Counted from the first letter of the stretch, positions 9,397 to 29,020 are shown. The stretch: 59,962 bases of DNA from Candidatus Omnitrophota bacterium (GCA_028715965.1 JAQUQS010000004.1:1-59962), one strand, 5' to 3'. Translations and numbers: made by a program. Notes: a model not told the origin generated them from the letters alone.

Positions 9397-9413
9397 ATTT
9401 AAGGGGAGCTTAT

Positions 9414-9593
9414 ATGTCGAATACTATGATGACGGTAAAAGATGTGGCGGAATATCTTAAGATGAAGACGGTGACTATCTATAAACACGCCCAGGATGGT
9501 AAGATCCCTGCCTTTAAGGTGGGATCGACCTGGCGGTTCAAGAAAGAAACCATTGATAAGTGGATCGAGGACCAGGAAAAGAATTACAAATAA
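9414..9593 (+). CDS. Small excisionase-like (HTH_17/MerR-like) DNA-binding protein, 59 aa, absent from ORF track
   Basis: Hand translation MSNTMMTVKDVAEYLKMKTVTIYKHAQDGKIPAFKVGSTWRFKKETIDKWIEDQEKNYK; strong RBS AAGGGGAG. Confidence 0.92.
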   Translation: MSNTMMTVKDVAEYLKMKTVTIYKHAQDGKIPAFKVGSTWRFKKETIDKWIEDQEKNYK

Positions 9594-9625
9594 CACATCG
9601 GTTATATAGCGGGATGTAACACATT

Positions 9626-10870
9626 ATGGATAAAAGGATAGTGATAACAGGAGCGGGAGTGCTCGCGTCGAACGGGATAGGATTAAGGGCATTTGCCGGA
9701 TCCCTGAAGAATGGAGTATCGGGTATAAAACCCGTTACTCTTTTCGATACTTCGACCACTAAAAGTAAACTGGCCGGGGAGATATCGGATTTTGACCCCG
9801 CTTCAATTCTGGGGAAAAAAGGCCTGCGGAATCTTGATCGTACGACCCTTTTGGCTATGGCGGCTTCAAAACTAGCAATAGACGACGCGGGACTTTCTGA
9901 CCCGATCGGAGAAGATGTAACGGATCAAGTCGGTGTTTCTCTCGGTTCGACGCTTGGCAGTGTATGGTCTATAAGCGAATTTGATAAAGTCGCTCTAAGG
10001 GAAGGGCCAAGGGCGACCAATCCCGCGCTTTTCCCAAATACCGTAATAAATTCACCAGCAAGTCATATATCTATACGGTTTAACATAAAAGGGTTCAATG
10101 CTACCGTATCGACCGGGTTTTGCGCGAGTCTTGACGCTATCTTTTACGCTTTGAACCAGATGGAGCTTTACGGGTATCATACCGTTCTGGCCGGTGGGGT
10201 AGAGGAGCTGTGTGAACAGACTTATAAAGGTTTTCATAAGATCGGTTATCTTGCCGGGTCACGTGAAGGCAAGGAAGAGGTGAACTGCCCATTCGATAAG
10301 CGCCGTAATGGGATAATCCTGGGGGAAGGCGCTGGAATATTCGTACTTGAGGAACTGGAACACGCTCTTGAACGGAAAGCTCGTGTATACGCCGAAATAA
10401 CGGGTTATGGCACATCGTTCGATCCCAAGTCCCGGAACATATGCAGTCCCAAGGCTGAAGGCGCGTCTCGCGCTATCAAGATGGCCCTGGATGACGCCGA
10501 TATTATGCCGGATGACATAGGGCTTATCTTTTCGACGGCTAATTCGACGCTGGATTGCGATGTCATGGAGGCAAGGGCCATACGGAAAGTCTTCGGTGAT
10601 AGAACGGATACCCTCCCCGTAACCAATATTAAACCTCTTGTAGGCGAGACTTTTTCGGCCAGTGGGGCGATGAATATCGCTGCAGCGCTTGTGGGGACAT
10701 CAGAGGGTTTTATACCCGCCATACGATGTGAGGTAGAAAAGGATAAACGATGTAAGTTGGCGTATTTAACAAAAGTTTCGGATATGCCTTCGGGAGATAT
10801 TCTTATTAATGATTTCGGCCCGACGGGAAATAATTCGGCCATAGTGATGCGGGGGATAAATGCTACTTAA
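9626..10870 (+). CDS. Non-catalytic beta-ketoacyl synthase homologue (chain-length-factor-like)
   Basis: KS fold (RIVITGAG, LGEGAG) but TGFCASL in place of TAC, STANST in place of AHGTGT and LVGETF in place of xGH. Confidence 0.8.
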   Translation: MDKRIVITGAGVLASNGIGLRAFAGSLKNGVSGIKPVTLFDTSTTKSKLAGEISDFDPASILGKKGLRNLDRTTLLAMAASKLAIDDAGLSDPIGEDVTDQVGVSLGSTLGSVWSISEFDKVALREGPRATNPALFPNTVINSPASHISIRFNIKGFNATVSTGFCASLDAIFYALNQMELYGYHTVLAGGVEELCEQTYKGFHKIGYLAGSREGKEEVNCPFDKRRNGIILGEGAGIFVLEELEHALERKARVYAEITGYGTSFDPKSRNICSPKAEGASRAIKMALDDADIMPDDIGLIFSTANSTLDCDVMEARAIRKVFGDRTDTLPVTNIKPLVGETFSASGAMNIAAALVGTSEGFIPAIRCEVEKDKRCKLAYLTKVSDMPSGDILINDFGPTGNNSAIVMRGINAT

Positions 10871-11603
10871 AGATAAAGTCGCTATTATAACAGGTGGTTC
10901 GCGTGGCATAGGCGAGGCTATCGTGCGCGCGTTTGCCGCAGAAGGCGCTGCCGTAGCCTTCAATTATTTGAAAAGCCGGGATAAAGCGGACAAAATATGC
11001 AGGGATATAAACGCCGATGGTGGCAATGCTCTTGCGATAAAAGCGGACGTTAAGGACTTCAAGGCGATGAAGGATATGGTCGATGAGACTAAAAAGGTTT
11101 TTGGGCGCCTGGATGTGGTAGTCAATAACGCTGGGATCCTTCGGGATAAGGCTATGATGCTCATGGAAGAAGAAGATTGGCAGGATGTTATATCGACCAA
11201 TCTTTCCGGTACGTTCAATTTAACCCGTGCCGCCATAGTGACTTTTCTTAAGCAGAAGAGCGGGAACGTTATTAATATAACCTCGGTGGCTGGCCTGGCC
11301 GGGATAGCACGGCAGGTCAATTATTCATCAAGCAAGGCCGGACAGATAGGCCTCACAAAGTCGCTTGCGCGTGAGGTCGGGCCTTATAACATAAGGGTGA
11401 ACGCCATAGCTCCGGGATATACCGCGACGGATATGACCGCGTCATTTGATGACACAATGAAAGAAAAATTGATACAGACCATACCGTTGGGGCGGTTTGG
11501 TAGCGTGGAAGACATCGCTAAATTAGCGCTTTTTCTGGCTTCGAACGATTCGGCTTATATAACGGGCCAGGTTTTTTCTGTTGATGGTGGGTTATATATG
11601 TAA
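10860..11603 (+). CDS. fabG: 3-oxoacyl-ACP reductase
   Basis: TGGSRGIG, NNAG, YSSSK, NAIAPG SDR motifs; overlaps the upstream KS gene by 11 nt. Confidence 0.93.
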   Translation: MLLKDKVAIITGGSRGIGEAIVRAFAAEGAAVAFNYLKSRDKADKICRDINADGGNALAIKADVKDFKAMKDMVDETKKVFGRLDVVVNNAGILRDKAMMLMEEEDWQDVISTNLSGTFNLTRAAIVTFLKQKSGNVINITSVAGLAGIARQVNYSSSKAGQIGLTKSLAREVGPYNIRVNAIAPGYTATDMTASFDDTMKEKLIQTIPLGRFGSVEDIAKLALFLASNDSAYITGQVFSVDGGLYM

Positions 11604-11615
11604 AAAGGAGGAGGG

Positions 11616-11873
11616 ATGCGCTGCATGGTGGACGATAACATTCTCGCGGAAGATCTGAAAAAAATTATATCCGAAGTGATCGAGGCAGATCCTGAAGAAG
11701 TAACGTTAACCGCTAAATTTGTCGAGGATCTGGGCATGGACTCAATGATGGCATTGGAGATACTCGCGGCCATCGAAAAGAAATATGGTATCCAGATACC
11801 TGAAAGTAATTTAGCCAACTTGACCGATCTTCAGGAAGCTATCAAGGTGACAAAAGAATATTTAATTGATTGA
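11616..11873 (+). CDS. Acyl carrier protein
   Basis: DLGMDSM phosphopantetheine site, acidic, 85 aa; RBS GGAGGAGGG. Confidence 0.95.
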   Translation: MRCMVDDNILAEDLKKIISEVIEADPEEVTLTAKFVEDLGMDSMMALEILAAIEKKYGIQIPESNLANLTDLQEAIKVTKEYLID

Positions 11874-13089
11874 GAGCAGGATGAAAAGGCGTGTAGTAAT
11901 AACAGGTCTTGGTATAGTATCGTCGATCGGTATTGGAAAGGATACTTTCTGGAAAAATCTCGTTTCAGGAAGATCTGGTATTACTGATGTCGACAGGTTT
12001 GATGTGTCCAATTTTTCCATAAAAAAAGCCGGGGAGATCAAAGGCTTCAAACCGGATGATTTTATGCCATCAGGCTCAGTTAAAAAAATAGGCAGAGGGT
12101 CTCAGCTAGCCATTGCGGCCACATCGCTGGTTTTTAAAGACGCAGGATTGTCCCCAAATATATTTCGCGAAAAGCGCTCTGGGCTAGTTGTCGGGACAAC
12201 AATGGGTGAGTCGCCTTCGATCGAAATGATCGACAGGTTCTGGACATCCGGGGGAGAAGAAAATGTGTATATGTCCAATGTCGCGAATTTTCCGGTAAAC
12301 AATCTTTCAAACAACATCGGGTTCTCCTTTTCTGTGGCCGGATTGAATTTGGTTGTTCCTACAGCGTGTGCTGCTGGGAATTATTCAATAGGATTCGCGG
12401 CAGATCTGATATCGAGAAATAAATGCGATTTGCTAATAGCTGGTGGTGCCGATCCACTTTCGCGGTTGGCGTTTACGGGTTTTAATAGGTTGTTCGCAAT
12501 GGCGCCGGAAAAGTGCCAACCTTTTGATAAGAACCGGAAAGGTATGATGTTGGGGGAAGGTGCGACAGTTCTTTTAATAGAAGCTCTTGAAAGCGCGAAA
12601 AAACGTAAAGCGCATATTTACGCGGAAATATTGGGATATGGCCTAAGCTGCGACGCGTATAACATGACAATTCCCAATGTGGATGGTATAGAGAAGGTTA
12701 TGAGAAAAGCTTTAATTAACGCAGGGATCGGTCCGGGAGATGTTGACTATATTTCGGCCCATGGAACCGGGACTCCCGCTAATGATAATGCTGAATGCGA
12801 GGCGATACATCGGGTGTTCGGAGCCCATTCCAAAGATCTGGCTGTAAGTTCGATAAAATCCATGTTAGGGCACACCATGGGTACGGCAAGTGCTATTGAA
12901 GCGGCTGCTTGTTGTATGGCTCTGGAGACGGCTATTTTACCTCCAACTATAAATGTAGATGAACAAGACGAGGACTGCGATATTTTTTGTATTCCGAATA
13001 AAGCTGTAAAAAAACAAATTAGGGTAGCCTTGAATAATTCTTTTGCTTTTGGCGGGAATAACGCATGTTTGGTGTTAGGAGTTGTATGA
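11866..13089 (+). CDS. fabF: Beta-ketoacyl-ACP synthase II-like (catalytic Cys-His-His intact)
   Basis: TACAAGN, SAHGTGT, KSMLGH, NSFAFGGNN; start may be ATG at 11881. Confidence 0.9.
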   Translation: MIESRMKRRVVITGLGIVSSIGIGKDTFWKNLVSGRSGITDVDRFDVSNFSIKKAGEIKGFKPDDFMPSGSVKKIGRGSQLAIAATSLVFKDAGLSPNIFREKRSGLVVGTTMGESPSIEMIDRFWTSGGEENVYMSNVANFPVNNLSNNIGFSFSVAGLNLVVPTACAAGNYSIGFAADLISRNKCDLLIAGGADPLSRLAFTGFNRLFAMAPEKCQPFDKNRKGMMLGEGATVLLIEALESAKKRKAHIYAEILGYGLSCDAYNMTIPNVDGIEKVMRKALINAGIGPGDVDYISAHGTGTPANDNAECEAIHRVFGAHSKDLAVSSIKSMLGHTMGTASAIEAAACCMALETAILPPTINVDEQDEDCDIFCIPNKAVKKQIRVALNNSFAFGGNNACLVLGVV

Positions 13090-14504
13090 ATGGGGCGTAT
13101 GATGTGATAGTAGTAGGTGCTGGGATAAGTGGTTTAATTTGTGGAGCGAAATTGTCAAAGGAAGGCTTCAGTGTTCTTGTTCTGGAAAAAAATTCTTACG
13201 CTGGAGGATGCATTTGTGGTGTGCGGAAAAAAGACTTCTATTTTGATTATGGAGCACATCTTTTTGGGAGTTTGAGTGCACACGGTATTTTTAAATACTA
13301 TTTGGACAGTTTGAATGTTAAAGACTTAGATTTTATTCGCATATCGCCAAGTGATAGATATTTTTTTTCAGATGAAAAAGTAGAAATACCTGAAGATTTA
13401 GATGAGTACGTGGAAATGTTAAAAACTAAATTCCCAACAAGTTCTAGGCGAATTAATAGTTTTTTTAGGGAAGTTATACAAATTGCACGAAGCTATTCAT
13501 CTGAAAAAAAATTAAGTAGATTTTACGATTTGAAGTTTATAGACTTGGTCAGAAAACATTTCTCAGACATAAAGTTGATAGGAGTGTTAATGGCTAGCTT
13601 TTCATATCTAGGCATCGCTCCAGGACAACTTGGTGCCACTTCAATGTCTCTCATGATGATTAGTTATCTTCGGGATGGAACATTTTATCCAAAGGGGGGG
13701 ACGCAAGCAATACCAGATGCATTTGTTCGCGGCATTAAGAATACAGGAGGAGAAATTAAGCTTTGTGAGGAAGTGCGGAAAATTTGTATTGTTCGAGATA
13801 ACGTTAAATTAATTACAACATCCAAAAAAAATCAGTATAGTTCAAAAGCTGTAGTAATTGCTTCTGACGTGAGGAGAGCATTTTCGAATATTATAGATTG
13901 CTCCAAACTTCCGGCAGGATACTTGTCTTTCTTGAAAAAGTTAAAGGTTGGGCCATCATTTTTTACTATGTATCTGGGGCTAAATAAAATTAATGATTTA
14001 AGCGAAAAATGTGGGTGGTATCATTCCTCCTATAACTTAGAGGCAAATGACGAATCACCTTTTTATGCGTTCTCGCCTAGCTGTATAGATAACAGCTTGG
14101 TTGCTTCCGATAAAAGCGTACTTCAACTTGCCATGCCATTTTATGAGGAAAATACATCTGAAATAGATTGGGAGAAACGTAAATATATGTTTCAGATTTG
14201 GATATGGAAGAAAATATGTGAAGTCATGCCACATTTGAGAGAACAAGTGCTATACGAAGAGGTCTCGAGTCCTAGTACAATTGAAAAATTTACTTTTAAC
14301 ACAAATGGTTCCATGTGTGGATGGGAGATGAGCCCGCAGTGTATGCATCTGAAAAGGTTGTATAATAAAACACCAATTGAGGGTGTATATTTGGCTGGTC
14401 ATTGGACTAATCCTGGTGGAGGTGTTGCCCCATCGGCTACTTCGGGTTGGATTGCTGCTGAACAAGTTAGAGAATACATTTCATTATTAATGCAAACAAG
14501 GTAA
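13086..14504 (+). CDS. FAD-dependent oxidoreductase, phytoene dehydrogenase/CrtISO/retinol-saturase superfamily
   Basis: VVGAGISG...LEKNSYAGG dinucleotide motif, YPKGGTQ, C-terminal AGHWTNPGGG; ATGA overlap with the fabF stop. Confidence 0.88.
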   Translation: MNGAYDVIVVGAGISGLICGAKLSKEGFSVLVLEKNSYAGGCICGVRKKDFYFDYGAHLFGSLSAHGIFKYYLDSLNVKDLDFIRISPSDRYFFSDEKVEIPEDLDEYVEMLKTKFPTSSRRINSFFREVIQIARSYSSEKKLSRFYDLKFIDLVRKHFSDIKLIGVLMASFSYLGIAPGQLGATSMSLMMISYLRDGTFYPKGGTQAIPDAFVRGIKNTGGEIKLCEEVRKICIVRDNVKLITTSKKNQYSSKAVVIASDVRRAFSNIIDCSKLPAGYLSFLKKLKVGPSFFTMYLGLNKINDLSEKCGWYHSSYNLEANDESPFYAFSPSCIDNSLVASDKSVLQLAMPFYEENTSEIDWEKRKYMFQIWIWKKICEVMPHLREQVLYEEVSSPSTIEKFTFNTNGSMCGWEMSPQCMHLKRLYNKTPIEGVYLAGHWTNPGGGVAPSATSGWIAAEQVREYISLLMQTR

Positions 14505-14512
14505 GGTGATAA

Positions 14513-15826
14513 ATGTATTTAGATATAGAGAAGAGTGAGCGAGACCGAATTGTAATTACTGGAGTAGGACCACTATGTTCTTTGGGCTCTGGGACTAAGC
14601 AAGTATGGGAATCCATAGATAAGGGAAAGCAAAATTTGGTTAAGCATAAACACACAATAGATGACATGGAATTAGGACAGTTTTATCTGCATAAAATTGA
14701 AAACTTTAATCTTGATGATTATGCTTTGCCGAAGGGAAATTATGTTTATGTAAATAGCTTGCGAGGTTTTAGAGACCCTGATGTGGATCTGCATTATTTT
14801 TTAGCCGCAGTTAAATTAGCATTAGAAGACAGTGGCTATGACTATGATTTAAAAGAAAACAAAGTCGGGCTTGTTCTTGCGCACGAGAATCCTGGGATGG
14901 AATCTTTGTTTGAAGATATAACGAAAAGTGCATACGAGATTTTCAAAAAATCTAAACAAAACGACAAATTAGATTTTATTCACGAATTATATGACGATTG
15001 TGAAGAGTCGGGATATAGTCTTCAGACGTTTACGTATTTGTACTCAGTTGCAAAAGTATTTGATTTGCACGGGTACTCTCTGTTTATAAATAATGCGTGT
15101 GCTTCAGGGCTCTTTGCAATCGAAGCGGCTGCCCGTAACATTAGAAGTGGCTTGAACACGGCAACGGTTGTTGCGGCGATAGATTCGCCCCTAAAAATTT
15201 ATAAATATATGTGGTTTAAAAAGCTAGGTTTATATAACGATGAAGATGGTAAAATGAAGCCATTTTCAAAAAAGGCAAATGGAGTTGTTTTTGGTGATGG
15301 AGGCGCTGCGCTGATATTGGAAACGTTAGAAAGTGCAAAAAAGCGAGGTGCTACAATTTATGCAGAGTATTTAGGTGGTGGGTTTTGCTTAGAGGGGTGG
15401 AAAATCACAGTACCAGATATCACAAGTAATTATTATGAAAAAGCCTTTGAGGAAGCGATTTACCGTTCTGGCATCAAAGCAAATAGCATTGATTTAGTTA
15501 ATCCACATGGAGTTGGGTTAAAAGTTACAGATTTATACGAAACCAGAACAATACAACGTGTACTTTCACAAAGAAGTGCTATGGTAAGTGCTTTTAAGCC
15601 ATTAGTTGGCCATAATTTGGGAGGAAGTGCTTTGTTGGAAACAGTGATAGGGCTTTTAGCGATGCAACATCAAACTGTACCGGCAACGTTGAATTGCGAG
15701 GATGTCATTGATGGGTGCGATCTGAATATTATTAAAAACAATAAAAAGGCTAAAATCGAAACGTTCGCAAAAATGGCCATAGGTTTTGCTGGATACAATG
15801 CAGTTGGTATATTCAGAAAGGTATAA
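14513..15826 (+). CDS. Divergent beta-ketoacyl synthase (catalytic triad retained)
   Basis: NNACASG, NPHG, KPLVGH, FGDGGAA; atypical N-terminal half (AHENPG). Confidence 0.85.
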   Translation: MYLDIEKSERDRIVITGVGPLCSLGSGTKQVWESIDKGKQNLVKHKHTIDDMELGQFYLHKIENFNLDDYALPKGNYVYVNSLRGFRDPDVDLHYFLAAVKLALEDSGYDYDLKENKVGLVLAHENPGMESLFEDITKSAYEIFKKSKQNDKLDFIHELYDDCEESGYSLQTFTYLYSVAKVFDLHGYSLFINNACASGLFAIEAAARNIRSGLNTATVVAAIDSPLKIYKYMWFKKLGLYNDEDGKMKPFSKKANGVVFGDGGAALILETLESAKKRGATIYAEYLGGGFCLEGWKITVPDITSNYYEKAFEEAIYRSGIKANSIDLVNPHGVGLKVTDLYETRTIQRVLSQRSAMVSAFKPLVGHNLGGSALLETVIGLLAMQHQTVPATLNCEDVIDGCDLNIIKNNKKAKIETFAKMAIGFAGYNAVGIFRKV

Positions 15827-15841
15827 TTAGCTGATTTGCAG

Positions 15842-16408
15842 ATGAAAAATGTAGTTATTTTGAACACATTGGATAATAACGCAAATAGTATGCATATGAC
15901 TATTGTTGACAAACTCAACAAAGTTCTTTCGCTGGAAAAATGCGATGTGCAGCATTACAAGATTCAGGATTTACATATAATGTCATGTGTAGGATGTTTT
16001 GGGTGCTGGGTTAAAACGCCTGGAATGTGTAGCATAGTTGATGATTCAAATGATATTATCAATGCTATCAAAAAGACGAATTATCTTGTCCTGCTCTCTA
16101 CTATAATGTTTGGTAGCTATTCGTCTGACATGAAAAAGATTATTGATAGATTAGCGCCACTTGCAGAACCGTTTTTTAGGCAAATAGATGGTATAACACA
16201 ACATGTGCCGAGAATTAATAGAGAAGTAAGGATTATAGCAATAGGTGTTAATGATACTGGACAGGATAAATATGGTGATGTATTTTCCTTGCTTGTTGAA
16301 AAAAATGCCCAAAATTTTTTTAATTCACGACATATTTGTCTTGTTTATAAAAGTTCGGTGGGGTGTAAAGGACTAGGGGATAAAATCTTATCTTTTATGC
16401 GGGGTTGA
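15842..16408 (+). CDS. Flavodoxin-fold / iron-sulfur flavoprotein-like protein
   Basis: SCVGCFGCWVKTPGMC cysteine motif and FGSYSSDMKKIIDR. Confidence 0.8.
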   Translation: MKNVVILNTLDNNANSMHMTIVDKLNKVLSLEKCDVQHYKIQDLHIMSCVGCFGCWVKTPGMCSIVDDSNDIINAIKKTNYLVLLSTIMFGSYSSDMKKIIDRLAPLAEPFFRQIDGITQHVPRINREVRIIAIGVNDTGQDKYGDVFSLLVEKNAQNFFNSRHICLVYKSSVGCKGLGDKILSFMRG

Positions 16409-16414
16409 GTTAAT

Positions 16415-17062
16415 ATGAGTACTCAAATTTTAATATTAATTGGTAGCCCAAAGAAGAAGGATAGTACATCAGAATCAATTGCTACTAAATTAAAATTAAT
16501 TTTGGGAGAGCAAGGAGCATGTGTACATGTCATGTCATTGTTTTTAAGTCTAAATGATAGCGAGAATATTGATAAATTTTTCAAAAAAATAAATTCAGTA
16601 GATATCATTACATTTATATCGCCGGTATATGTTGATTCTCCGCCTTTTATGGTTTTAAAATTTCTTGAAATTATTAGTGAAAAAAGCAAAACTCTTAATA
16701 ATGAAAAATGCAAAAAAATTTTTGCTATTTCACTCTGTGGCTATCCCGAAGCTGTTCACAACGAGCTTTCTTTAATGATTTATAAAAACTTTGCGGATTG
16801 TTGTGGTTTTTTGTGGGGAGGAGGAATGTCGATAAGCATGGCACCATTTATTAGGCAGGATCATATAAGGTATATTGGTGTTAAAAATCAAAATTTACTG
16901 CATTCGTATGAGATGTTGTGCAGGAAGATGTTAAGTGTGGAGGATGAAATTGATGATGAATGCATAGAAGTTGCTCCAATATTACCCAAGTGGCTATATT
17001 TGTCAATCGCCCACATAGCATGGTATTGCTCTTATGTTAGAAATGTTCTTAAAAGAGGCTAA
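16415..17062 (+). CDS. Flavodoxin-fold NAD(P)H-dependent oxidoreductase
   Basis: IGSPKKKDSTS FMN loop, SPVYVDSPP, CGYPE. Confidence 0.78.
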   Translation: MSTQILILIGSPKKKDSTSESIATKLKLILGEQGACVHVMSLFLSLNDSENIDKFFKKINSVDIITFISPVYVDSPPFMVLKFLEIISEKSKTLNNEKCKKIFAISLCGYPEAVHNELSLMIYKNFADCCGFLWGGGMSISMAPFIRQDHIRYIGVKNQNLLHSYEMLCRKMLSVEDEIDDECIEVAPILPKWLYLSIAHIAWYCSYVRNVLKRG

Positions 17063-17071
17063 CAGTAAAAC

Positions 17072-19228: not shown

Positions 19229-19249
19229 ATATCGGGGTATTTCATTAAT

Positions 19250-19651: not shown

Positions 19652-20033
19652 TATGCTAAAATTACTTGTTGTCGATGACGAAGTGGACATCTGTGATTTT
19701 GTAAGAAGTTTCTTCAAGGAACGTAATTTTGAGGTATTTGTCGCATACAACGGCAAGAAGGCCATCGAGACCATTGAGAAGGAAAAACCGGATATCGTGC
19801 TTCTCGATATGAATATGCCCGGAATGACCGGACTTGAAGCGCTTCGGGAGCTTCGGCAGCAAGGCAACCAGATAAAAACTATCATGGTGACCGCCGTCGA
19901 CGAGCCGGATAAGATCGAGGAAGCGAAAAAACATGGTGTGGTGGAGTATATAACGAAACCGCTGCTTTTAGAGCAGCTTGAACGTACGGTTTTTACCGTG
20001 GCGGAACAGATAAGGATGGATAGCGCAAAATAA
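19644..20033 (+). CDS. Stand-alone response regulator receiver
   Basis: VDDE, LLDMNMPGMTG, VTAV, ITKP; no output domain. Confidence 0.93.
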   Translation: MNNMLKLLVVDDEVDICDFVRSFFKERNFEVFVAYNGKKAIETIEKEKPDIVLLDMNMPGMTGLEALRELRQQGNQIKTIMVTAVDEPDKIEEAKKHGVVEYITKPLLLEQLERTVFTVAEQIRMDSAK

Positions 20034-20061
20034 CGGTTCGGCTGAAAGGGGAGAGGGAGAA

Positions 20062-21384: not shown

Positions 21385-23000
21385 ACGCATTTGCGTTATC
21401 AGGATTTTTAGCGGGCTTTGCGTGCTTATGCATGGGGTTATTTGTTTTAAGGTACTCCACCAATAAAATCCATTTTACATTTTCCTTACAAGTACTTTCT
21501 ATCTCCATATGGGGTTTTGCATGTGGCTTTGCAGGAATTGCAAAAAATCCAACTAATGCTTTGTTGTGGTGGAAGATCGCGCATATAGTTGCTTTTTTTA
21601 TTATTGCATTTTTACTGCATCATGTTCTATTGGTTAGACAATTGAGTCGTCCGATACTAATATTTGGGGCGTATGTTATTTCGGTTTCTTTGCCAATTGT
21701 CTTCTATCTTAATTTTCATGGTATAACCATGAGATATGTATTCGATAGTTTTTATATTCCTGCCTATACAAATCTCATTTATCCTTCATATTGCATTCTT
21801 TGGTTCGCAATTGGTGTTTATATAACAATTCTTTTAATTGGTATGTACAGGCAAGCCTCTTTACCGGAAAAAACCGTTGCCAGATTATATATTTTTTCAT
21901 ATATTTTGGGGCTATGGGGTGGGGGAGCATATATCTTTCTCATATTTGGCTTAAATATCTATCCGTATGGAAATTATCTATTGCCAGTTATGTGTATTAT
22001 TATGACATATGCGATATTTAAGCACAGGCTATTCGAGATTAATGTTATTATGAAGAAAACGCTTATCTATTCGCTTCTCATAACGGTAATTACGCTTTCA
22101 TATTTTCTTATTGTCTATGCAATGGAACGATTTTTTAGTGTCTATGTTGGTTATCATTCACCGTGGTTGTCCATTTTGATAATTTCATTTATTATTTTGA
22201 TCTTCACGCCATTAAAGAACCGTATACAACATATCATTGATAAATACTTCTTTCGTGGTAGTATTGACCAGATAGATGAGGAGAACCGCCGTTTGGGATC
22301 CGAGCTGGAAAGGTCCGAGAGGTTAAAGTCCTTAGCAACGCTGGCTTCAGGCATGGCCCATGAGATAAAGAACCCGTTAACGTCTATTAAGACGTTCTCG
22401 GAGTTCGTGAAGACACGAGGAATGGATGCCGAGTTTCGGGAAAAATTTCAAAAAATAGTCCCACAGGAAATAGATAAAATAACCAATATCGTGAACCAGC
22501 TCCTTGATTATTCAAAAACGGACCGCACAAGGCTGGCAGAATGCAATATCCATGACATTCTGGATTATGTGCTGGCGCTCCATAATAATGAGCTTATCAA
22601 GCGCGGTATACGCCTTGAGAAGGCATATGAGGCCCGGGACGCCGGTATTACCTGTGACGCTAATAAGCTCAAACAGGCCTTTATAAACCTGGTCTTGAAC
22701 GCGATAGAGGCTATGGGCAGGGATGGGGCCTTGACCGTACAAACTGAAGCGGATGAAAAGGTGTTAACCATTGTAATTAAAGATACCGGCCCGGGGATAT
22801 CTAAAGAAAATTTAGCGCACTTATTTGATCCATTCTTTACGACCAAGGATAATGGTACCGGATTAGGGCTTTTTGTGACTCATCAGATAATTACCGCGAA
22901 TGGTGGCAAGATATCCGTATCCAGTGAAGAGGGGAAAGGAACAGAGTTCAGGGTGGAGTTGATCAAACATGAATGCATTCACGTTTTCAGGATTTACTAG
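21381..23000 (+). CDS. Membrane-sensor histidine kinase HK1
   Basis: Multi-TM N-terminus, AHEIKNPL, NAIEAM, DTGPG, FFTTK; no GAF. Confidence 0.92.
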   Translation: MNAFALSGFLAGFACLCMGLFVLRYSTNKIHFTFSLQVLSISIWGFACGFAGIAKNPTNALLWWKIAHIVAFFIIAFLLHHVLLVRQLSRPILIFGAYVISVSLPIVFYLNFHGITMRYVFDSFYIPAYTNLIYPSYCILWFAIGVYITILLIGMYRQASLPEKTVARLYIFSYILGLWGGGAYIFLIFGLNIYPYGNYLLPVMCIIMTYAIFKHRLFEINVIMKKTLIYSLLITVITLSYFLIVYAMERFFSVYVGYHSPWLSILIISFIILIFTPLKNRIQHIIDKYFFRGSIDQIDEENRRLGSELERSERLKSLATLASGMAHEIKNPLTSIKTFSEFVKTRGMDAEFREKFQKIVPQEIDKITNIVNQLLDYSKTDRTRLAECNIHDILDYVLALHNNELIKRGIRLEKAYEARDAGITCDANKLKQAFINLVLNAIEAMGRDGALTVQTEADEKVLTIVIKDTGPGISKENLAHLFDPFFTTKDNGTGLGLFVTHQIITANGGKISVSSEEGKGTEFRVELIKHECIHVFRIY

Positions 23001-23259
23001 GCACATTGACTTAAAGGTTGTTGGGAGTCCATATACCTTCGAAAAGTATACGCTTAATAGCAGGGGGGCGATATATGGGCGGGCGGCCACAAAAGAACAA
23101 ATAAAGCGCAGGATTTCACCTCAAATATTAGTATTTAAAAATTCAATTTTTGCGGGACATTGGACCACAAGCGGTCTTGGACAAACTGGTATTCCAGTTG
23201 TGGCATTATCTGGAAAAGCCGCTGCCAAGACGATATTGTCCTTAATTGCAGGAGAATGA
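22969..23259 (+). pseudogene. Chimeric remnant: first 9 codons of a sensor kinase fused to the C-terminal ~80 aa of a phytoene-dehydrogenase-family gene
   Basis: First 27 nt are 23/27 identical to the HK1 start; SPYTFEKYTLNSRGAIYG...AGHWT aligns with SPSTIEKFTFNTNGSMCG...AGHWT of 13086-14504. Confidence 0.82.
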
Positions 23260-23260
23260 A

Positions 23261-24853
23261 ATGACCTTATTCGGCGTCTCCGCATTGTTAGCCGGAGTCA
23301 CAAGTTTTTTTATGGGTATCTTTGTCTATTTGAATGGACAAAATGAAAAAGTAAACCGGACTTGGTTGGGAGTGACTTTTAGTGTCACAATTTGGGGTTT
23401 TGGGAGTTTTATAGCTACACACCCTTCTAATATTGGTTTTTCAATGCTTTTTTGGAAGCTGACATACATAGGAGTGATCTATGTCCCGGTATTTTTTTTC
23501 CATTTTGTTTGTGTTTTTTTAAAAATTGATAGAAGTAAGTTTATCAAGTTTTTATACCTTCTCGCGAGTTTTTATTTGGTCTCCTATCTCTTTTTTGATG
23601 ACACATTCTTGGGGGGTATTAATACAATTTTCGAGGGATTGCATTGGTGCGGTTACCCGGGACCAATATTTATTACGTTCTATGTCTCATTTTACTTAGG
23701 GCTTAATCTTTACTCGTTTTATTTGTTATTTAAAAAACTCAAATCGTCTTCGGGTATCGAAAAAACTCAGTTATTTTACCTGATAATAGGATCCGCCATA
23801 GGGTGGATAGGCTCCGAGGGCTGTTTCGCTGGGGTCTGGAATATCCCCATATATCCCTTATCAAATTTTCTTACAGCAATTTATCCCATAATTCTTGGGT
23901 ATGCTATTGTGAGGCACCAACTTCTTGAGATAGATGTTATCATTAAAAAGACCCTCATCTATTCCGTTCTGATAACCATAATTACGTTGCTATATTTCCT
24001 GATGGTTTACGCCATAGAGCGGCTCTCCAGCGTGTATATTGGCTATCATTCGCCTTTACTGTCAGTCGCCATAATTACATTCTTTATTCTCATCTTTACC
24101 CCTCTTAAGAACCGTATCCAGCATATCATCGATAAATATTTCTTCCGAGGCAGCATAGACCAGATTGACGCGGAAAAACGCCTATTGGAATCCGAACTGG
24201 AAAGGTCCGAGAGGTTAAAGTCCTTGGCAACGCTGGCGTCAGGCATGGCCCATGAGATAAAGAACCCGCTTACCAGTATCAAAACGTTCTCAGAGTTCGT
24301 TAAAACGAAAGGCGGAGACCCCGAGTTCAAGGAGAAGTTTGAGAAGATAGTCCCCCAGGAAATAGACAAAATAACCAATATCGTGAACCAGCTCCTGGAC
24401 TACTCAAAGACTGACCGCACAAGACTGACCGAGTGTAATATCCATGACATATTGGACTATGTGCTTGAGCTCCACAATAATGAGCTTATGAGGCGTGGGA
24501 TAAGGCTCCAGAAGGCCTACGGGGCCCAGAACCCGAATATCACCTGTGACGCCAACAAACTCAAACAGGCGTTTATTAATCTGGTATTGAACGCCATAGA
24601 GGCCATGGGGGAGAATGGGGTATTGACGGTAGGGACGGAGGGGGCTGATCATTTGGTTGTTATGGTGAAAGATACCGGTCCGGGGATTTCGCCCGCAAAC
24701 ATTCCACATCTATTTGACCCCTTCTTTACGACAAAGGATAGCGGCACGGGATTAGGGCTGTTCGTTACTCATCAGATAATATCCTCAAATGGCGGGAAGA
24801 TATCAGTATCCAGTGAAGAGGGGAAGGGTACAGAGTTTAAGGTGGAGTTTTGA
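23261..24853 (+). CDS. Membrane-sensor histidine kinase HK2
   Basis: Same architecture as HK1; RBS AGGAG before ATG 23261. Confidence 0.92.
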   Translation: MTLFGVSALLAGVTSFFMGIFVYLNGQNEKVNRTWLGVTFSVTIWGFGSFIATHPSNIGFSMLFWKLTYIGVIYVPVFFFHFVCVFLKIDRSKFIKFLYLLASFYLVSYLFFDDTFLGGINTIFEGLHWCGYPGPIFITFYVSFYLGLNLYSFYLLFKKLKSSSGIEKTQLFYLIIGSAIGWIGSEGCFAGVWNIPIYPLSNFLTAIYPIILGYAIVRHQLLEIDVIIKKTLIYSVLITIITLLYFLMVYAIERLSSVYIGYHSPLLSVAIITFFILIFTPLKNRIQHIIDKYFFRGSIDQIDAEKRLLESELERSERLKSLATLASGMAHEIKNPLTSIKTFSEFVKTKGGDPEFKEKFEKIVPQEIDKITNIVNQLLDYSKTDRTRLTECNIHDILDYVLELHNNELMRRGIRLQKAYGAQNPNITCDANKLKQAFINLVLNAIEAMGENGVLTVGTEGADHLVVMVKDTGPGISPANIPHLFDPFFTTKDSGTGLGLFVTHQIISSNGGKISVSSEEGKGTEFKVEF

Positions 24854-24866
24854 GGGTAAAGGAATA

Positions 24867-26474
24867 ATGAGTGTCTTTCAGTTATCAAATATCATGGTAG
24901 TGGCGACTAACTTTGGTATTGCCATATTTTTTCTTTTTAGCGCAAGAAAGCACTATTTGTTCGCATTATTTACCATGAGTGCTGGTGTTTGGGGAGTTGG
25001 AGCTTATATCTTTTCGTCAGCTTCAATGCAAGGGTATGATCTAGCGTTTTTAGGGTGGAAGATAGCATATATGGGGGCGTTCTTCACGGTAATATTTTTT
25101 TCACATTTTGTGATGAAATACCTGGATATGGGTCGTAAAAAACTTATCTTATATTTATACATATCGGGTTTAATCTTTTCATTTTTTAATTGGTATCAAA
25201 ACTCGCATTATTTCTTGCAAGACTTACGTTTTGTTTTTAATGAGATATATTGGCTCGATGCCATAAAAGCTAATAATTTTTTGTGGTACATATTTTATGT
25301 GAGTTATTACTGGGTTGCCTTGCTTTATGTTTTTTACAAGTTAATAGTTAAGTACTGCGACTCCGAAGGCGCATACAAACAAAAAATCAAATATTTTATA
25401 ATTGCGGCTGGCATTGGTTGGTTGGGGACGGAACCGCTTTTTTTGCCAGCACTTCATGTTGACGCATATCCTTATTCGAACTTCCTTATCGCGATATATC
25501 CATTAATATTTGCATATGCTATTGTTCGGCATCAGGTGATGGATGTCGAAATCATAATTAAGAAGACCCTAATTTATTCTGCTCTAATAACTGTTATTAC
25601 TTTGCTTTACTTTCTTATTGTCTATGCTATGGAACGTATCTTCAGTGTGTATATTGGCTATCACTCTCCATTTTTATCTATTCTGATAATATCATTTATC
25701 ATCCTAATTTTCACGCCTCTCAAGAATCGGCTTCAACATATAGTTGATAAGTACTTCTTCAAGGGAAGCATAGACCAGATAGACGCGGAAAAACGCCTGT
25801 TAGAGTCCGAGCTGGAAAGGACAGAACGCCTCAAGTCCATAGCTACATTGGCTTCAGGCATGGCCCATGAGATAAAGAACCCGCTAACAAGTATAAAAAC
25901 GTTCTCGGAGTTCGTTAAAACGCGCGGTATGGAGCATGACTTTAGAGAGAAGTTCGAAAAGATAGTCCCCCAGGAAATAGACAAAATAACCAATATCGTC
26001 AACCAGCTCCTGGATTATTCCAAGACAGACCGTACAAGGCTGGCCGAATGTAACATTCATGATATTCTGGACTATGTGCTGGAATTACACAATAATGAGC
26101 TTATAAGGCGTAATATAAGGCTTGAGAAGGCCTATGCGGCCCAGAACCCGAACATCACCTGTGACCCCAATAAGCTTAAACAGGCCTTTATAAACCTGGT
26201 CCTGAACGCCATAGAGGCCATGGGGGAGAATGGGGTATTGACGGTAGGGACGGAGGGGGCTGATCATTTGGTTGTTATGGTGAAAGATACCGGTCCGGGG
26301 ATTTCGCCCGCAAACATTCCACATCTATTTGACCCCTTCTTTACGACAAAGGATAGCGGAACGGGGTTAGGGCTTTTTGTGACTCATCAGATAATTGCCG
26401 CGAATGCTGGTAAGATATCCGTAGTTAGTGAGAAGGGGAAGGGTACAGAGTTTAAGGTGGAGTTTGATCTATAA
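24867..26474 (+). CDS. Membrane-sensor histidine kinase HK3
   Basis: Same architecture as HK1/HK2; likely start ATG 24867 (MSVFQLSN). Confidence 0.92.
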   Translation: MSVFQLSNIMVVATNFGIAIFFLFSARKHYLFALFTMSAGVWGVGAYIFSSASMQGYDLAFLGWKIAYMGAFFTVIFFSHFVMKYLDMGRKKLILYLYISGLIFSFFNWYQNSHYFLQDLRFVFNEIYWLDAIKANNFLWYIFYVSYYWVALLYVFYKLIVKYCDSEGAYKQKIKYFIIAAGIGWLGTEPLFLPALHVDAYPYSNFLIAIYPLIFAYAIVRHQVMDVEIIIKKTLIYSALITVITLLYFLIVYAMERIFSVYIGYHSPFLSILIISFIILIFTPLKNRLQHIVDKYFFKGSIDQIDAEKRLLESELERTERLKSIATLASGMAHEIKNPLTSIKTFSEFVKTRGMEHDFREKFEKIVPQEIDKITNIVNQLLDYSKTDRTRLAECNIHDILDYVLELHNNELIRRNIRLEKAYAAQNPNITCDPNKLKQAFINLVLNAIEAMGENGVLTVGTEGADHLVVMVKDTGPGISPANIPHLFDPFFTTKDSGTGLGLFVTHQIIAANAGKISVVSEKGKGTEFKVEFDL

Positions 26475-26476
26475 GG

Positions 26477-28075
26477 CTATATCGTGAGCGTGAACGTTGT
26501 TCCTGTTCCTAAAGTACTTTTTACATCTATTTTTCCGTTATGTTTATCAATTATCCCATGAACTACGCTTAGCCCCAGCCCCGAGCCTTCGTCTTTCCGG
26601 GTGAAGAACGGGTCGAATATGTTCTTTAAGTCTTTTTTGTCTATACCACACCCTGTATCCTCGATGGAGATAGATATTTTACTATCAAAGATACGTGTTC
26701 TCACGGTAAGTGTCCCGCCGGACTTCATGGCGTCAATAGCGTTCAGTAAAAGGTTTAACAGCGCTTGTTTCATCTGGGGGGGATCGATGTTGACCATAGG
26801 TAACGGTGAGAGTTCTTTTATGGCCCTTATATCTTTCTTGATCATTTCATTGTTGAGTAGGGACAGTGTCTCCTCTATCAGGGCGTTCATATCGGTCGGT
26901 ACCGGGACCAGCTCCTTAGGTTTGGAGAATTCCAGTAGTTGTTTGACTATGTTGTTTATCCGTTCAACTTCGGTTATGACGATACCGGAGAATTTATCCC
27001 TGAATTCCGGGTTGTCGCCTTTGACGGGCAGGTATTCGGCGAATGTTTTTATGGCGGTCAGGGGGTTCTTTATCTCATGTGCCATGCCGGCAGCGAGTGT
27101 GGAAACGGCTTTCAATTTCTCGCTTTTTTGGAGCTCCCCCCGCAGGCGGATGTTTTCTTCGTCTATCTGGTCAATAGTGTTATGGAAGTAATATTTATCA
27201 ACTGTCTTTTGTACCTTGATTTTGACTGGTTGCAAAACTATGGTAAAAAGTAAGATTATGGCGATTGTTAAATATGGCGAATGATAACCGTAATAATTTC
27301 GGAATATAAGTTCGATAACGATTATCACGAAGAAGTATAATAATGTAATTATGGTGCCAAGAATGGAATAAACAAGTGTTTTTCGTATGATTATCCTGAG
27401 GTCAATTAATCTATGGGCAAGTATTGCATATGTAAAACAGATCACGTAAAGTATCGCGAATAAATTTAAATAAGGAGGTAATGATACCCGGAAAAAGAGC
27501 AGGTAATTGCTCGAGCCCGAGATATATCCGCATACGATCCCAATAAGCAGGTATCTGATCTGGTTTTTTAATAATTTTGAGGCATGCTTATACGAAGAGA
27601 TCAGGTAATAGGTTGAAAGTATGGCATATGTATAGAAATAAATCAAATATGCGATGTAGGCTAATTCGGGGATGCCCCAATATGGGAAAATCCCGATGGG
27701 ACGCATGCCGCTGATAAAATATTTTGTAAAGATTATAGGCAAGAACAAAATGCTGATGACATAACCAGTTTTTATTAATCGCTTAAGTTCTAATTGTAAA
27801 AAAGTGGTTATGAAGTGGAAAAGTGTTATTGGTATAAATACTGCGCCGCAATGTAATATTCGAAACCAAAGCATAGTTCCGGAATATGTCTCGGCTATTG
27901 GCCAAAAAATGTATCCAAAGCTCCACATGGCAAAAGATAAATTGGCCAATCCACAGCGAATGTTTATTTTTGAGTGGGGATTTCTGAATATAACTAAGAG
28001 GGCAAGAGAAAAGGCGCCCAGGAAATTTATGATGCCACTGATAGAAAATAGAAGTAAGTTGTTGTAAGATTGCAT
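26477..28075 (-). CDS. Membrane-sensor histidine kinase HK4
   Basis: Multi-TM N-terminus, AHEIKNPL, NAIDAM, DTGCG, FFTRK, GSGLGL; convergent with HK3. Confidence 0.92.
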   Translation of the reverse strand: MQSYNNLLLFSISGIINFLGAFSLALLVIFRNPHSKINIRCGLANLSFAMWSFGYIFWPIAETYSGTMLWFRILHCGAVFIPITLFHFITTFLQLELKRLIKTGYVISILFLPIIFTKYFISGMRPIGIFPYWGIPELAYIAYLIYFYTYAILSTYYLISSYKHASKLLKNQIRYLLIGIVCGYISGSSNYLLFFRVSLPPYLNLFAILYVICFTYAILAHRLIDLRIIIRKTLVYSILGTIITLLYFFVIIVIELIFRNYYGYHSPYLTIAIILLFTIVLQPVKIKVQKTVDKYYFHNTIDQIDEENIRLRGELQKSEKLKAVSTLAAGMAHEIKNPLTAIKTFAEYLPVKGDNPEFRDKFSGIVITEVERINNIVKQLLEFSKPKELVPVPTDMNALIEETLSLLNNEMIKKDIRAIKELSPLPMVNIDPPQMKQALLNLLLNAIDAMKSGGTLTVRTRIFDSKISISIEDTGCGIDKKDLKNIFDPFFTRKDEGSGLGLSVVHGIIDKHNGKIDVKSTLGTGTTFTLTI

Positions 28076-28090
28076 ATGGACTTCTATGCT

Positions 28091-28447
28091 TTATATCATT
28101 TTAACCTTTTCTTTTACTTCCTTGCTGTCGAAAGGCTTTGTGATATAGTCTATTGCGCCGAGTTTCACCGAGCGTGCCGCGGTCTCTACGCTCTGGTATC
28201 CGGTAATGATGATAACTTTGATGTCGGGGGATATGGCGCGGATCTCGGCCAGGGTTTCCAGGCCGTTCTTTACCGGCATTTTAAGGTCCAGGAGAAGGCC
28301 GTCGTAATTATTGTTCCTCACTTCCTGCACGGCTTCATCGCCGGACGAGGCGAACCCCAGGATATAATCGTCCCCCAGGATCAGGTCAAGGGCTTCACGT
28401 ATGCCTTTTTCGTCATCGCATATCAGTAAGCGTTTTTTATTATTCAT
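28091..28447 (-). CDS. Stand-alone response regulator receiver
   Basis: CDDE, LLDLKMP, ITGY, ITKP. Confidence 0.92.
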   Translation of the reverse strand: MNNKKRLLICDDEKGIREALDLILGDDYILGFASSGDEAVQEVRNNNYDGLLLDLKMPVKNGLETLAEIRAISPDIKVIIITGYQSVETAARSVKLGAIDYITKPFDSKEVKEKVKMI

Positions 28448-28468
28448 GGAACTCCTCCTTATGCAATC

Positions 28469-29020
28469 TTATAAAGCAGGTGGGGATAATACACATATGG
28501 CTTCCGCATCGGCCTTGGACGCGTTCACGAATCTGTGTTTGAGCGAAGCGTCGAAGTAAAGGCTGTCACCCTTACGGAGGGTATATTTATCCTCTCCCAC
28601 ATGCGCGTCAAAAGATCCGGATATGACGTAAACAAATTTTTCAATGCCAGGTTTGGTCTGCTCTTCCTGGGTCGACCCTCCTGGGCCGAGAAGCATCATA
28701 AGAGGCATGATCTTTTTATCCAGGGCCTTCATTACAAGTAGTTCGTATTTCGCTTTTGCCGAATGGACAAAATGTTCCGTGCGTTTTTTGTGGGGAACCG
28801 CCTCAACGGTCTTATTTTCGTCCTCAAGTTCCCTGTAAAGTTCTGCTATGGAGACGTCCAATGCCTTACAGATACTTATGTGGGATTTTAATGTGCCGGG
28901 CATCTTATTGTTTTCCATGCGGCTTAGCGTTGCCAGGGCGACGCCGCTTTTACTTGATAATTCCTCAAGTGTGAGGCCTTTATCTTTCCTCAATTGGTGC
29001 AATCTATGGCCTATTTTCAT
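28469..29020 (-). CDS. XRE-family HTH + cupin transcriptional regulator
   Basis: LTLEELSSKSGVALATLSRMEN HTH; cupin EKFVYVISG...GDSLYFDASLKHRFVN; RBS GGAGG. Confidence 0.92.
   Translation of the reverse strand: MKIGHRLHQLRKDKGLTLEELSSKSGVALATLSRMENNKMPGTLKSHISICKALDVSIAELYRELEDENKTVEAVPHKKRTEHFVHSAKAKYELLVMKALDKKIMPLMMLLGPGGSTQEEQTKPGIEKFVYVISGSFDAHVGEDKYTLRKGDSLYFDASLKHRFVNASKADAEAICVLSPPAL

Follow-up and report, generated by a model that had tools for sequence, protein, structure and literature searches.

Why should a bacterium place the genes for building an acyl chain directly in front of a series of membrane sensor kinases? This question is raised by a locus at positions 9,414 to 29,020 of a 59,962-nucleotide stretch of DNA (GCA_028715965.1 JAQUQS010000004.1:1-59962; hereafter the window, always at its full length) from an uncultured Omnitrophota of a landfill metagenome. 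A ketosynthase (KS) cassette is followed there by a seven-transmembrane (7TM) histidine kinase, HK0, two receivers (REC1 and REC2), a GAF-HD-GYP protein and an array of further 7TM kinases. A first-pass annotation had proposed a polymorphic lipid-signal system. We think, with a probability of about 0.5, that the locus encodes a polymorphic acyl-derived signal together with a co-inherited receptor, following the logic of agr and comQXP and having an Rpf-like output. It would be one version of a modular signal and receptor unit that pervades the Omnitrophota, in which a constant backbone (a leading helix-turn-helix (HTH) protein, the cytoplasmic half of HK0, REC1, REC2, the GAF-HD-GYP protein and an XRE-cupin regulator) flanks a variable block formed by lipid-type enzymes and the 7TM sensor half of HK0.

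The constant part is seen best in the relatives of the locus (L numbers are the labels of their loci). A reciprocal scan with the HD-GYP protein gave 25 closer relatives, in which the HD-GYP is 69–79% identical to that of the window. Their units occupy the same site between pgpA and uvrA, with pgsA and pgpA on one side and a uvrA that is 70–78% identical on the other, and they keep the HTH, HK0, two receivers, HD-GYP and convergent XRE-cupin genes. The XRE-cupin protein is 48–73% identical and has the same convergent position in at least 17 relatives. In the window, these constant elements are found on the plus strand as the small HTH protein of the excisionase family with which the unit begins (9414-9593; TIGR01764, E 9e-16), HK0 (17072-19228), which according to Pfam consists of a 7TM region (approximately residues 1–225) followed by GAF, HisKA and HATPase domains, the stand-alone receivers REC1 (19250-19651; Response_reg E 5e-21, with the acceptor Asp present) and REC2 (19644-20033; Response_reg E 1e-30, with the canonical residues present), and the GAF-HD-GYP phosphodiesterase (20062-21384; HD_5 E 8e-40, with the HHERWDGKGYPDGL motif and an intact HHExxDGxGYP), the most conserved protein of the unit. 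The XRE-HTH plus cupin regulator (28469-29020; Pfam) is on the minus strand. The motifs on which function would depend, i.e. the HK0 H-box, the receiver aspartates, the HD-GYP motif and the serine of the acyl carrier protein (ACP), are all intact.

What lies between the HTH gene and HK0, which we call the cargo, is exchanged. The KS cassette is absent from the pgpA-uvrA site in all 25 closer relatives, where the cargo is an aldehyde dehydrogenase (ALDH) with a GMC oxidoreductase, an enzyme resembling acyl-ACP reductases (TIGR04058 / PigE N-domain family), either alone or accompanied by an SRPBCC protein, a Methyltransf_20 enzyme with a FabF-like KS whose motifs resemble those of the third ketosynthase of the window (KS3), another methyltransferase-like protein, or nothing at all. 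HK0 itself changes along its length, the median identity of its orthologues to the window being 26% in the 7TM region, 40% in the GAF domain and 63% in the kinase core, next to 82% in the catalytic domain of the HD-GYP protein. Sensor clusters, taken at 40% identity or more, follow the cargo class: one group comprises ten reductase-type cassettes, another two loci with KS3 and two flavodoxin-like genes (Fld), another the window and L069, and another two ALDH-GMC loci. The cargo class is the same in 21 of the 25 sensor pairs that are at least 40% identical (label permutation p ~0.002, with kinship ignored). Moreover, whatever bin of kinase-core identity is taken, similar sensors are more frequent among pairs with the same cargo, and some pairs from different clades resemble each other more in the sensor than in the kinase core.

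Cargo and sensor are also lost together. At cargo-less loci HK0 is short, with approximately two transmembrane helices and without the 7TM domain, and at L101 it starts with the first ~30 residues of the acyl-ACP reductase of a neighbouring species. Since this protein joins the start of the reductase to the post-sensor part of the kinase, one deletion took the enzyme body and the sensor together. In the window, a block of low GC content (0.29–0.39) extends from 13.2 to 18.4 kb, that is, from the start of the CrtI-like flavoenzyme gene (PDH) to about residue 440 of HK0; beside it the GC content is 0.42–0.50 in KS1-KS2 and 0.46–0.53 in the kinase core, the receivers and the HD-GYP gene. Transmembrane segments are AT-rich by nature, yet the PDH, KS3 and flavoproteins encoded in this block are soluble. 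Joint exchange of enzymes and sensor, as suggested by these comparisons, is what one would expect of a strain-specific lipid signal and its receptor. Thus, the polymorphism first proposed is borne out, in that cargo and 7TM sensor vary together on a conserved transmitter/HD-GYP backbone. The further claim that the cassette signals through the HK0 backbone stands as far as their linkage is concerned, but the KS product cannot be the only input of the backbone, because the closest relatives have the backbone without the KS cassette. The variation of cargo and sensor is seen between species-level metagenome-assembled genomes (MAGs) only; among the metagenome contigs of the source site there was no strain with a swapped block on the same backbone, the population data being uninformative in this respect. 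A dip in sequencing depth at 13.2–17.9 kb in run X2 was considered as a sign of a variant strain and rejected, the matches being short (45–95 nt), from other taxa and to conserved motifs.

Is the KS cassette of the window itself regularly linked to kinases? A KS1 scan, with one genome per species, gave 80 loci, approximately 60 of Omnitrophota type and 20 of anammox type, some of the former bearing the automatic label "uncultured Planctomycetia". When all window proteins were mapped on these loci, a recurring order emerged: HTH, KS1, FabG, ACP, (FabZ), KS2, tailoring genes, HK0, REC, REC and HD-GYP. The HTH protein at the head of cassette or backbone is 61–78% identical in relatives, and in a Velamenicoccus-like clade the unit ends in a HK0-like kinase facing a kinase, a receiver and an XRE-cupin gene. 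Among loci with informative flanks, 34 of 40 of Omnitrophota type have a 7TM kinase no more than 3 kb from the cassette, versus 0 of 13 of anammox type; within the HTH-led clade the linkage is 34/37. The first-pass annotation had taken cassette and kinase module as one unit, and had named kinase-free homologous KS clusters as the observation that would speak against it. For this clade that refutation fails, because 34 of the 40 informative loci carry a nearby 7TM kinase. The same wiring appears in an independent case retrieved with KS3 homologues, a MAG labelled Nitrospirae (GCA_016214845.1), in which L106:3645-16023 contains FabG, KS, ACP, FabA, KS, PDH, KS3, a 7TM kinase, a GAF/PAS kinase, a REC-HD-GYP protein and a receiver. 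The link between cassette and signalling is real, and the arrangement, found again in dozens of MAGs, is far beyond chance.

Four loci depart from this scheme. L047, L056, L062 and L072 have no detected kinase, no leading HTH gene and an alpha/beta-hydrolase, and they form a separate KS2 clade, which adjoins the anammox clade in the KS2 tree with weak support (85/53); the contig of L047 ends too soon to count as informative for linkage. At L108:1-15514 and L110:1-15508, which also came to light through KS3 homologues, two enzyme and kinase units are in tandem. In the first unit, a LuxD-methyltransferase or a GMC oxidoreductase is accompanied by a 7TM kinase and a receiver of its own, and the second is a KS cassette with KS3, PDH, a 7TM-GAF kinase, a receiver and HD-GYP. 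An AbiEii/AbiEi toxin-antitoxin pair is placed between or within the units, and a glycolipid module (MGDG-synthase-like, LpxL-like and GT2 proteins) lies directly downstream in L108–L110.

The additional kinases of the window give a second view of sensor exchange. HK1 (21381-23000; 7TM-HisKA-HATPase without GAF, by Pfam), HK2 (23246-24853; 7TM kinase, by Pfam and comparison of sensor and core) and HK3 (24789-26474; 7TM kinase, by Pfam and comparison) are on the plus strand. The 7TM kinase HK4 (26477-28075; Pfam) and the stand-alone receiver REC3 (28091-28447; Pfam and receiver residues) belong to the convergent module on the minus strand. In HK1–3, linker and kinase core are 81–92% identical and the 7TM regions 29–35%, with a jump of DNA identity at the domain border; the kinase core of HK2 is 83–92% identical to those of HK1 and HK3. 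HK4 is 46–51% identical to HK1–3 over linker and kinase core, and HK0 36% over the kinase core. The sensors have counterparts at other loci: that of HK1 has 51% identity with the kinase encoded after KS3 in L022, that of HK2 has its best match in the HK0 sensor of L002 (59%), and the best matches of HK4 and HK3 are in L014 (41%) and L046 (39%). Between HK1 and HK2, orf96 (96 codons; 22969-23259, plus strand) preserves just the C-terminal end of a second, different CrtI-like gene, as judged from sequence comparison. It matches residues 400–473 of the window PDH with E 4e-8, and its best match anywhere is the C-terminus of the L002 PDH (53%, E 4e-24), whose gene directly precedes the L002 HK0. 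Because orf96 and the HK2 sensor match the adjoining PDH tail and sensor of L002, we regard them as a collinear remnant of an L002-type unit.

Helix 1 of the DHp domain has an established role in the partner choice of kinases. It is almost identical in HK1–4 (HEIKNPLT[SA]IKTF...) and different in HK0 (HEICNPLGIARGQ...). Since this helix is common to HK1–4 and unlike that of HK0, the four kinases probably feed one receiver, for which REC3 beside the XRE-cupin gene is the obvious candidate. The proposal that HK1–3 are extra receptors fits well with one shared transmitter carrying divergent sensors, of which those of HK1 and HK2 match sensors standing beside other cassette types. The single c-di-GMP output first proposed is not supported for HK1–4, whose DHp helix points to REC3 as the probable target and not to the HD-GYP branch.

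What may such a cassette produce? It starts with KS1 (9626-10870, plus strand like the rest of the cassette), a chain-length-factor (CLF)-type partner homologous to amxFabFmut. There follow a FabG-type 3-oxoacyl-ACP reductase (10860-11603; TIGR01830, 304 bits, above cutoff), a dedicated ACP with a DSM serine motif (11616-11873; PP-binding, E 2e-15) and KS2 (11866-13089), a ketosynthase with intact triad homologous to amxFabF2. The best PDB matches of KS2 and KS1 are two chains, B and C, of one solved heteromeric complex: 9s5h_B gives 472 bits with KS2, against 341 for the second best match, the ishigamide KS 6kxd, and at most 302 for FabF, and 9s5h_C gives 353 bits with KS1, against at most 226 for any FabF. 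We infer that PDB 9s5h/9s5i is the amxFabF2/amxFabFmut heterodimer of Brocadia fulgida. A preprint describes this pair as a KS/CLF-like complex that decarboxylates malonyl-ACP and places it in the anammox Cluster I (KustE3603-3608), together with amxACP, amxFabZ, a phytoene-dehydrogenase homologue and a B12 radical SAM enzyme; its authors term the cluster unique to ladderane producers (10.64898/2026.05.19.726425). For the anammox heterodimer (amxFabFhet), a preference for C6-C8 is reported.

The catalytic residues follow the same division of labour. In a joint alignment, all 54 Omnitrophota loci have Phe in KS1 at the position of the catalytic Cys (anammox sequences have Val or Thr there), and both His are replaced, His1 by S/N/T/A/C and His2 by E/D (C and E in the anammox partner); KS1 thus lacks the whole triad, and its first description as a dead KS is correct. 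KS2 has the set C168, H299, K331 and H336, the Cys-His-His-Lys being invariant in 64 orthologues, and KS3 keeps these four residues in the joint alignment as well. The KS2 tree groups the anammox sequences in a single clade, with the Omnitrophota clades next to it. The initial description as a type II fatty acid synthase/polyketide synthase (FAS/PKS) cassette is right as to the genes, but it missed the close homology to the amxFabF2/amxFabFmut pair of Cluster I. Judged by sequence relationship, the KS/CLF pair of anammox Cluster I has its Omnitrophota counterpart in the biosynthetic half of this locus. Like Cluster I, this half has KS2 and KS1 as nearest relatives of the anammox pair, a dead partner with His-to-Asn/Glu-type replacements, a dedicated ACP and an adjacent CrtI-like flavoenzyme (30–32% identical to the anammox PDH), so that four of the six Cluster I functions (ACP, KS, CLF and PDH) are present in the window. 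Unlike Cluster I, it has no B12 radical SAM enzyme and no FabZ: the similarity of the Scalindua radical SAM enzyme (L052) is confined to the generic core of the MiaB-like gene (6300-7631), with 21% identity, and no FabA/FabZ homologue occurs anywhere in the 60-kb window. A FabA/FabZ-type gene is present in the loci of many relatives. Because the radical SAM enzyme and FabZ are absent, the window locus is not an equivalent of Cluster I, and it differs further in the addition of FabG, KS3, two flavoproteins, the leading HTH gene and the 7TM kinases with HD-GYP. In the searchable literature, Omnitrophota are named only among several phyla with antiSMASH "ladderane" calls, with no analysis.

Two observations on other loci can be added here. 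The kinase-less subfamily of L047, L056, L062 and L072 (see L047:4559-5653 and 8669-9589; L056:2150-3109) carries alpha/beta-hydrolase and PDH genes and has distant B12-radical-SAM-like genes nearby, 22–25% identical to the Scalindua Cluster I enzyme; in L047 such a gene is directly upstream of KS1. From their gene content, these loci may be truer Cluster-I-like loci outside anammox bacteria. At L053, the genes for ACP, FabZ, KS2, KS1 and PDH are of anammox type and almost identical to those of Scalindua in a MAG labelled Thermodesulfobacteriota, a label that is probably a binning error.

The second half of the cassette is that of tailoring and release. PDH (13065-14504) is a CrtI / phytoene-dehydrogenase-family flavoenzyme (Amino_oxidase E 2e-27; crtI_fam E 1e-36, below cutoff). 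It is followed by KS3 (14513-15826), which domain scan and alignment identify as a divergent FabF-like ketosynthase with full triad, and whose family counts 1,532 members at E <= 1e-20. Fld1 (15836-16408) is flavodoxin-fold FMN-reductase-like, with a marginal FMN_red match (28 bits) and a CX2CX2CX7C motif in which the first, third and distal Cys are invariant and the second occurs in two of four orthologues; Fld2 (16415-17062) is flavodoxin-fold NAD(P)H:quinone/FMN-reductase-like, with sub-threshold Pfam matches. Their AF2 models are of low confidence (pLDDT 57–58), and the top PDB fold matches are all flavodoxin-fold FMN/quinone reductases (AzoR, ArsH and flavodoxins for Fld1; MdaB, NQO1 and SsuE for Fld2), which gives weak support to a flavodoxin fold for both predicted proteins. 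The domain scans of the window found no acyltransferase, thioesterase, reductase, dehydratase or exporter; the lack of acyltransferase, thioesterase and exporter had been noticed from the beginning.

Among the KS-cassette loci the release and tailoring genes vary widely. The variants include an AAR-type reductase (at least 17 loci), a thioester-reductase-domain (TR) protein, a fusion of a LuxD-like acyltransferase with a methyltransferase, a nitroreductase, alpha/beta-hydrolases, methyltransferases both soluble and of ICMT type, Fe-S proteins, one or two PDH genes, and KS3. No locus combines an AAR/TR reductase (30 loci) with KS3 (seven loci and the window); the Fisher test (p = 0.01) is descriptive only, because the tree shows the KS3 loci to be mostly one clade. 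This distribution makes KS3 a candidate for an alternative chain-terminating or off-loading enzyme. In a complete genome (CP070780), L012:13395-15752 has HTH, KS1, AAR, FabG and ACP genes without KS2 and HK0, and this cassette faces a convergent gene for a fatty-acyl-AMP-ligase-like protein (AMP-binding and PP-binding domains).

As for the setting of the locus, the open reading frame (ORF) map and the Pfam/NCBIfam scans from which the genes were called recovered every element of the first gene list in its place, and the junctions described as tight or overlapping are indeed so, in that neighbouring genes either overlap or are at most 32 bp apart all the way from the HTH gene to HK3. The flanks are housekeeping genes, with a MiaB-like methylthiotransferase, pgsA and pgpA on the left and uvrA and a TPR protein on the right. 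The AT-rich spacer from pgpA to the operon (8674..9413, plus strand) has three 36-nt repeats (TGGGTACAGGTTTAGCTTTGAGAATATAAACGGTTT, within 8734-9103) with inverted partial copies, and its best promoter-like site is at 9167-9194. In a promoter and terminator scan the counts equalled those of shuffled sequence, which leaves the tight junctions as the evidence for an operon, and a crude k-mer test for a conserved operator upstream of the HTH gene gave no 9-mer in 30% or more of 44 upstream regions. The sequencing runs that hold the stretch are four DNA runs of one landfill study, with no RNA run. Palindromic words resembling GTACCAGGT number 23 in the window versus seven expected. Between the XRE-cupin gene and uvrA, an array at 29101-29486 consists of two interleaved units (~54–56 nt) with TTGTACC-A-GGTACAA palindromes, and it looks like a genome-wide REP-like element. 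The GTACCAGGT palindromes were rejected as a marker of island boundaries, in view of the generic-looking array and of another exact copy at 37019. Within the unit, the GAF of the HD-GYP protein (20062-20790) resembles that of HK0 (18200-18450), with 32% identity over 82 residues (E 2e-10), which hints at a shared ligand or a GAF-GAF contact.

How could the whole work? The gene identities, the conserved linkage and the co-variation and co-loss of cargo and sensor are observed, and from them we infer every biochemical step of the following route. The KS2/KS1 heterodimer would prime and elongate a chain on the dedicated ACP, FabG would reduce the beta-keto group and a housekeeping FabZ would carry out the dehydration. 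The CrtI-like flavoenzyme, served by Fld1 and Fld2, could then desaturate or isomerise the chain, and KS3 would make a terminating condensation or release, a step that in most relatives would be taken by an acyl-ACP or thioester reductase giving an aldehyde. The hydrophobic product would enter the membrane and be read by the matched 7TM sensor of HK0, which would phosphorylate REC1 and/or REC2, so that HD-GYP is modulated and, with it, c-di-GMP. HK1–4 may be receptors left from, or acquired with, other cassette types, which would converge on REC3 and the XRE-cupin regulator. The product would serve as a signal, possibly for sensing of kin or prey.

Several points weigh against this proposal. 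Since the sensor adjoins the cargo physically, their co-replacement could be hitch-hiking and not selection of a matched pair, and the permutation test ignores phylogeny and shows a modest effect. The exclusivity of KS3 and reductases comes down to few independent events (the clade, L031 and L106–L111), because the KS3 loci are mostly one clade. Other inputs must exist, because the backbone works without cargo in some relatives. The step from the receivers to HD-GYP is a conjecture, because the HD-GYP protein has no receiver domain here. Besides, a structural lipid is the supposed product of the anammox homologues, and the window shows no exporter, and no release enzyme except KS3.

These last points lead to the most serious of the other explanations, in which the product is structural: a specialised envelope or membrane lipid (e.g., with an unsaturated or ether-linked chain), the 7TM kinase giving DesK-like feedback on membrane state or composition and adjusting c-di-GMP-dependent envelope physiology. 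A role of this kind would agree with the position of the closest characterised homologues in a candidate ladderane lipid cluster, with pgsA/pgpA beside the locus in the window and the glycolipid module beside L108–L110, with the lack of an exporter, and with reductive release to an aldehyde or alcohol, which would suit ether-lipid synthesis. However, the cassette is dispensable, being replaced at the same site by unrelated enzymes or by nothing in close relatives, and the tailoring genes differ greatly among loci. The sensor is the fastest-changing part and tracks the cargo, which is unexpected for a sensor of the bulk membrane, and orphan sensors accumulate. We consider a structural lipid unlikely on balance.

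The same diversity of tailoring genes is reminiscent of biosynthetic gene clusters, in which regulators are commonly embedded, and it could be explained by an effector product, such as an antimicrobial, a host- or prey-directed lipid or a protective polyene. In that case the kinases would sense external cues and only regulate production via the receivers, HTH, XRE-cupin and c-di-GMP. Similar KS/CLF cassettes elsewhere make polyene pigments and amides (6kxd being the second-best PDB match of KS2), and Omnitrophota have been reported as host-dependent nanobacteria. Nevertheless, an effector leaves unexplained why the membrane sensor is exchanged or lost together with the enzymes and why minimal versions exist with a single acyl-ACP reductase and a sensor, and the locus has no transporter or resistance gene; for these reasons an effector appears to us rather improbable. 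On indirect grounds, taken from the locus and its relatives, it is hardly credible that KS, FabG and ACP are merely a housekeeping type II FAS with unrelated signalling genes alongside. FabG does score as an equivalog of housekeeping FabG, but the nearest relatives lack the cassette at the site and the KS1 scan found it in only one of their 25 assemblies. Moreover, KS1 is catalytically dead, KS2 resembles amxFabF2 far more than it does any FabF, the cassette holds only KS/CLF, FabG and ACP with no FabH, FabD, FabZ or FabI, and its synteny with kinases is conserved.

Should the reading of a polymorphic signal with its co-inherited receptor hold true, it would describe lipid signalling between cells (or to self) for the first time in Omnitrophota, which are widespread, uncultured, mostly ultra-small and whose interactions are barely understood. 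It would be also the first non-peptide case of signal-receptor co-diversification in the style of agr/comQXP, and the dozens of natural cargo-sensor pairs on one chassis offer a concrete experimental handle. A bolder and tentative extension, for which the odds are against us, is that Omnitrophota and at least one Nitrospirae-labelled lineage possess phylum-wide lipid "dialects". Swappable acyl-ACP cassettes would each be inherited with a product-recognising 7TM sensor on a fixed kinase/receiver/HD-GYP chassis, and orphan sensors such as HK1–4 would hear cassette types no longer made, for recognition of kin, competitors or hosts by ultra-small host-dependent bacteria. It would follow that Cluster I of the anammox bacteria has a KS/CLF-ACP-desaturase core of the same family, to which the radical SAM enzyme is an anammox-specific addition. 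Regardless of signalling, a KS/CLF pair deemed ladderane-specific has abundant close homologues in non-anammox bacteria, in cassettes usually ending in reductive release to an aldehyde. Such homologues therefore constrain the possible role of the shared core of Cluster I, and the Omnitrophota cassettes are genetically simpler homologues for studying it.

It is useful to compare the locus with known systems. No description of a system with this architecture was found in the searchable literature, in agreement with the first-pass annotation. For the biosynthetic half, a parallel besides Cluster I is given by highly reducing type II PKSs (ishigamide Iga11/Iga12, PDB 6kxd-6kxf; aryl polyene ApeO/ApeC), which share an active KS with an inactive partner, a ketoreductase and an ACP, and whose FabA/ApeI-like dehydratase is found in relatives of the window locus. 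Unlike them, the locus has no thioesterase, glycosyltransferase, acyltransferase or LolA-type export set, its relatives release reductively, and the cassette is coupled to signalling genes. Among signalling systems, CqsA/CqsS of Vibrio, LqsA/LqsS of Legionella and PhcB/PhcS of Ralstonia place the enzyme for a hydrophobic autoinducer of acyl origin (an alpha-hydroxyketone or a methyl 3-hydroxy fatty acid ester) beside the multi-transmembrane kinase that detects it. The adjacency of enzyme and kinase genes is similar here, and the methyltransferase variants L092 and L043 recall PhcB. In those systems, however, the enzyme is a PLP-dependent acyltransferase, or a methyltransferase alone, and they are not known to have a dedicated KS/CLF/ACP, an HD-GYP output or cassette swapping.

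The output resembles that of the diffusible signal factor (DSF) system Rpf of Xanthomonas, formed by the crotonase synthase RpfF, the hybrid sensor kinase RpfC and the REC-HD-GYP protein RpfG. In both cases a molecule derived from the fatty acid pathway would be made beside a polytopic membrane kinase, with an HD-GYP c-di-GMP output that is here predicted from the genes, and the L106 relative even has a REC-HD-GYP protein (REC-HD_5). The synthase, in contrast, is a KS/CLF-ACP pathway and not a crotonase, no such domain being found in any protein of 9414-29020. HK0 ends after HATPase_c and is not a hybrid, lacking a receiver and HPt of its own, and the HD-GYP protein of the window carries GAF instead of REC, with two free receivers in between; a REC-HD-GYP protein is absent from this clade. 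To our knowledge, no polymorphic block of cargo and sensor exists for Rpf.

For such polymorphism the closest models are agr of Staphylococcus and comQXPA of Bacillus, in which a hypervariable block comprises the signal-making genes and the N-terminal polytopic sensor, while kinase core and regulator are conserved. Those systems use ribosomal peptides and belong to Firmicutes, whereas here acyl-ACP enzymes and an HD-GYP output are involved, and the variation is so far between species-level MAGs and not within one species. The polymorphism of ComQXPA pherotypes has been described (PMC4408185). The locus of the window shares with agr and comQXPA a variable block of synthesis genes and N-terminal sensor beside a conserved kinase core, with distinct types among relatives.

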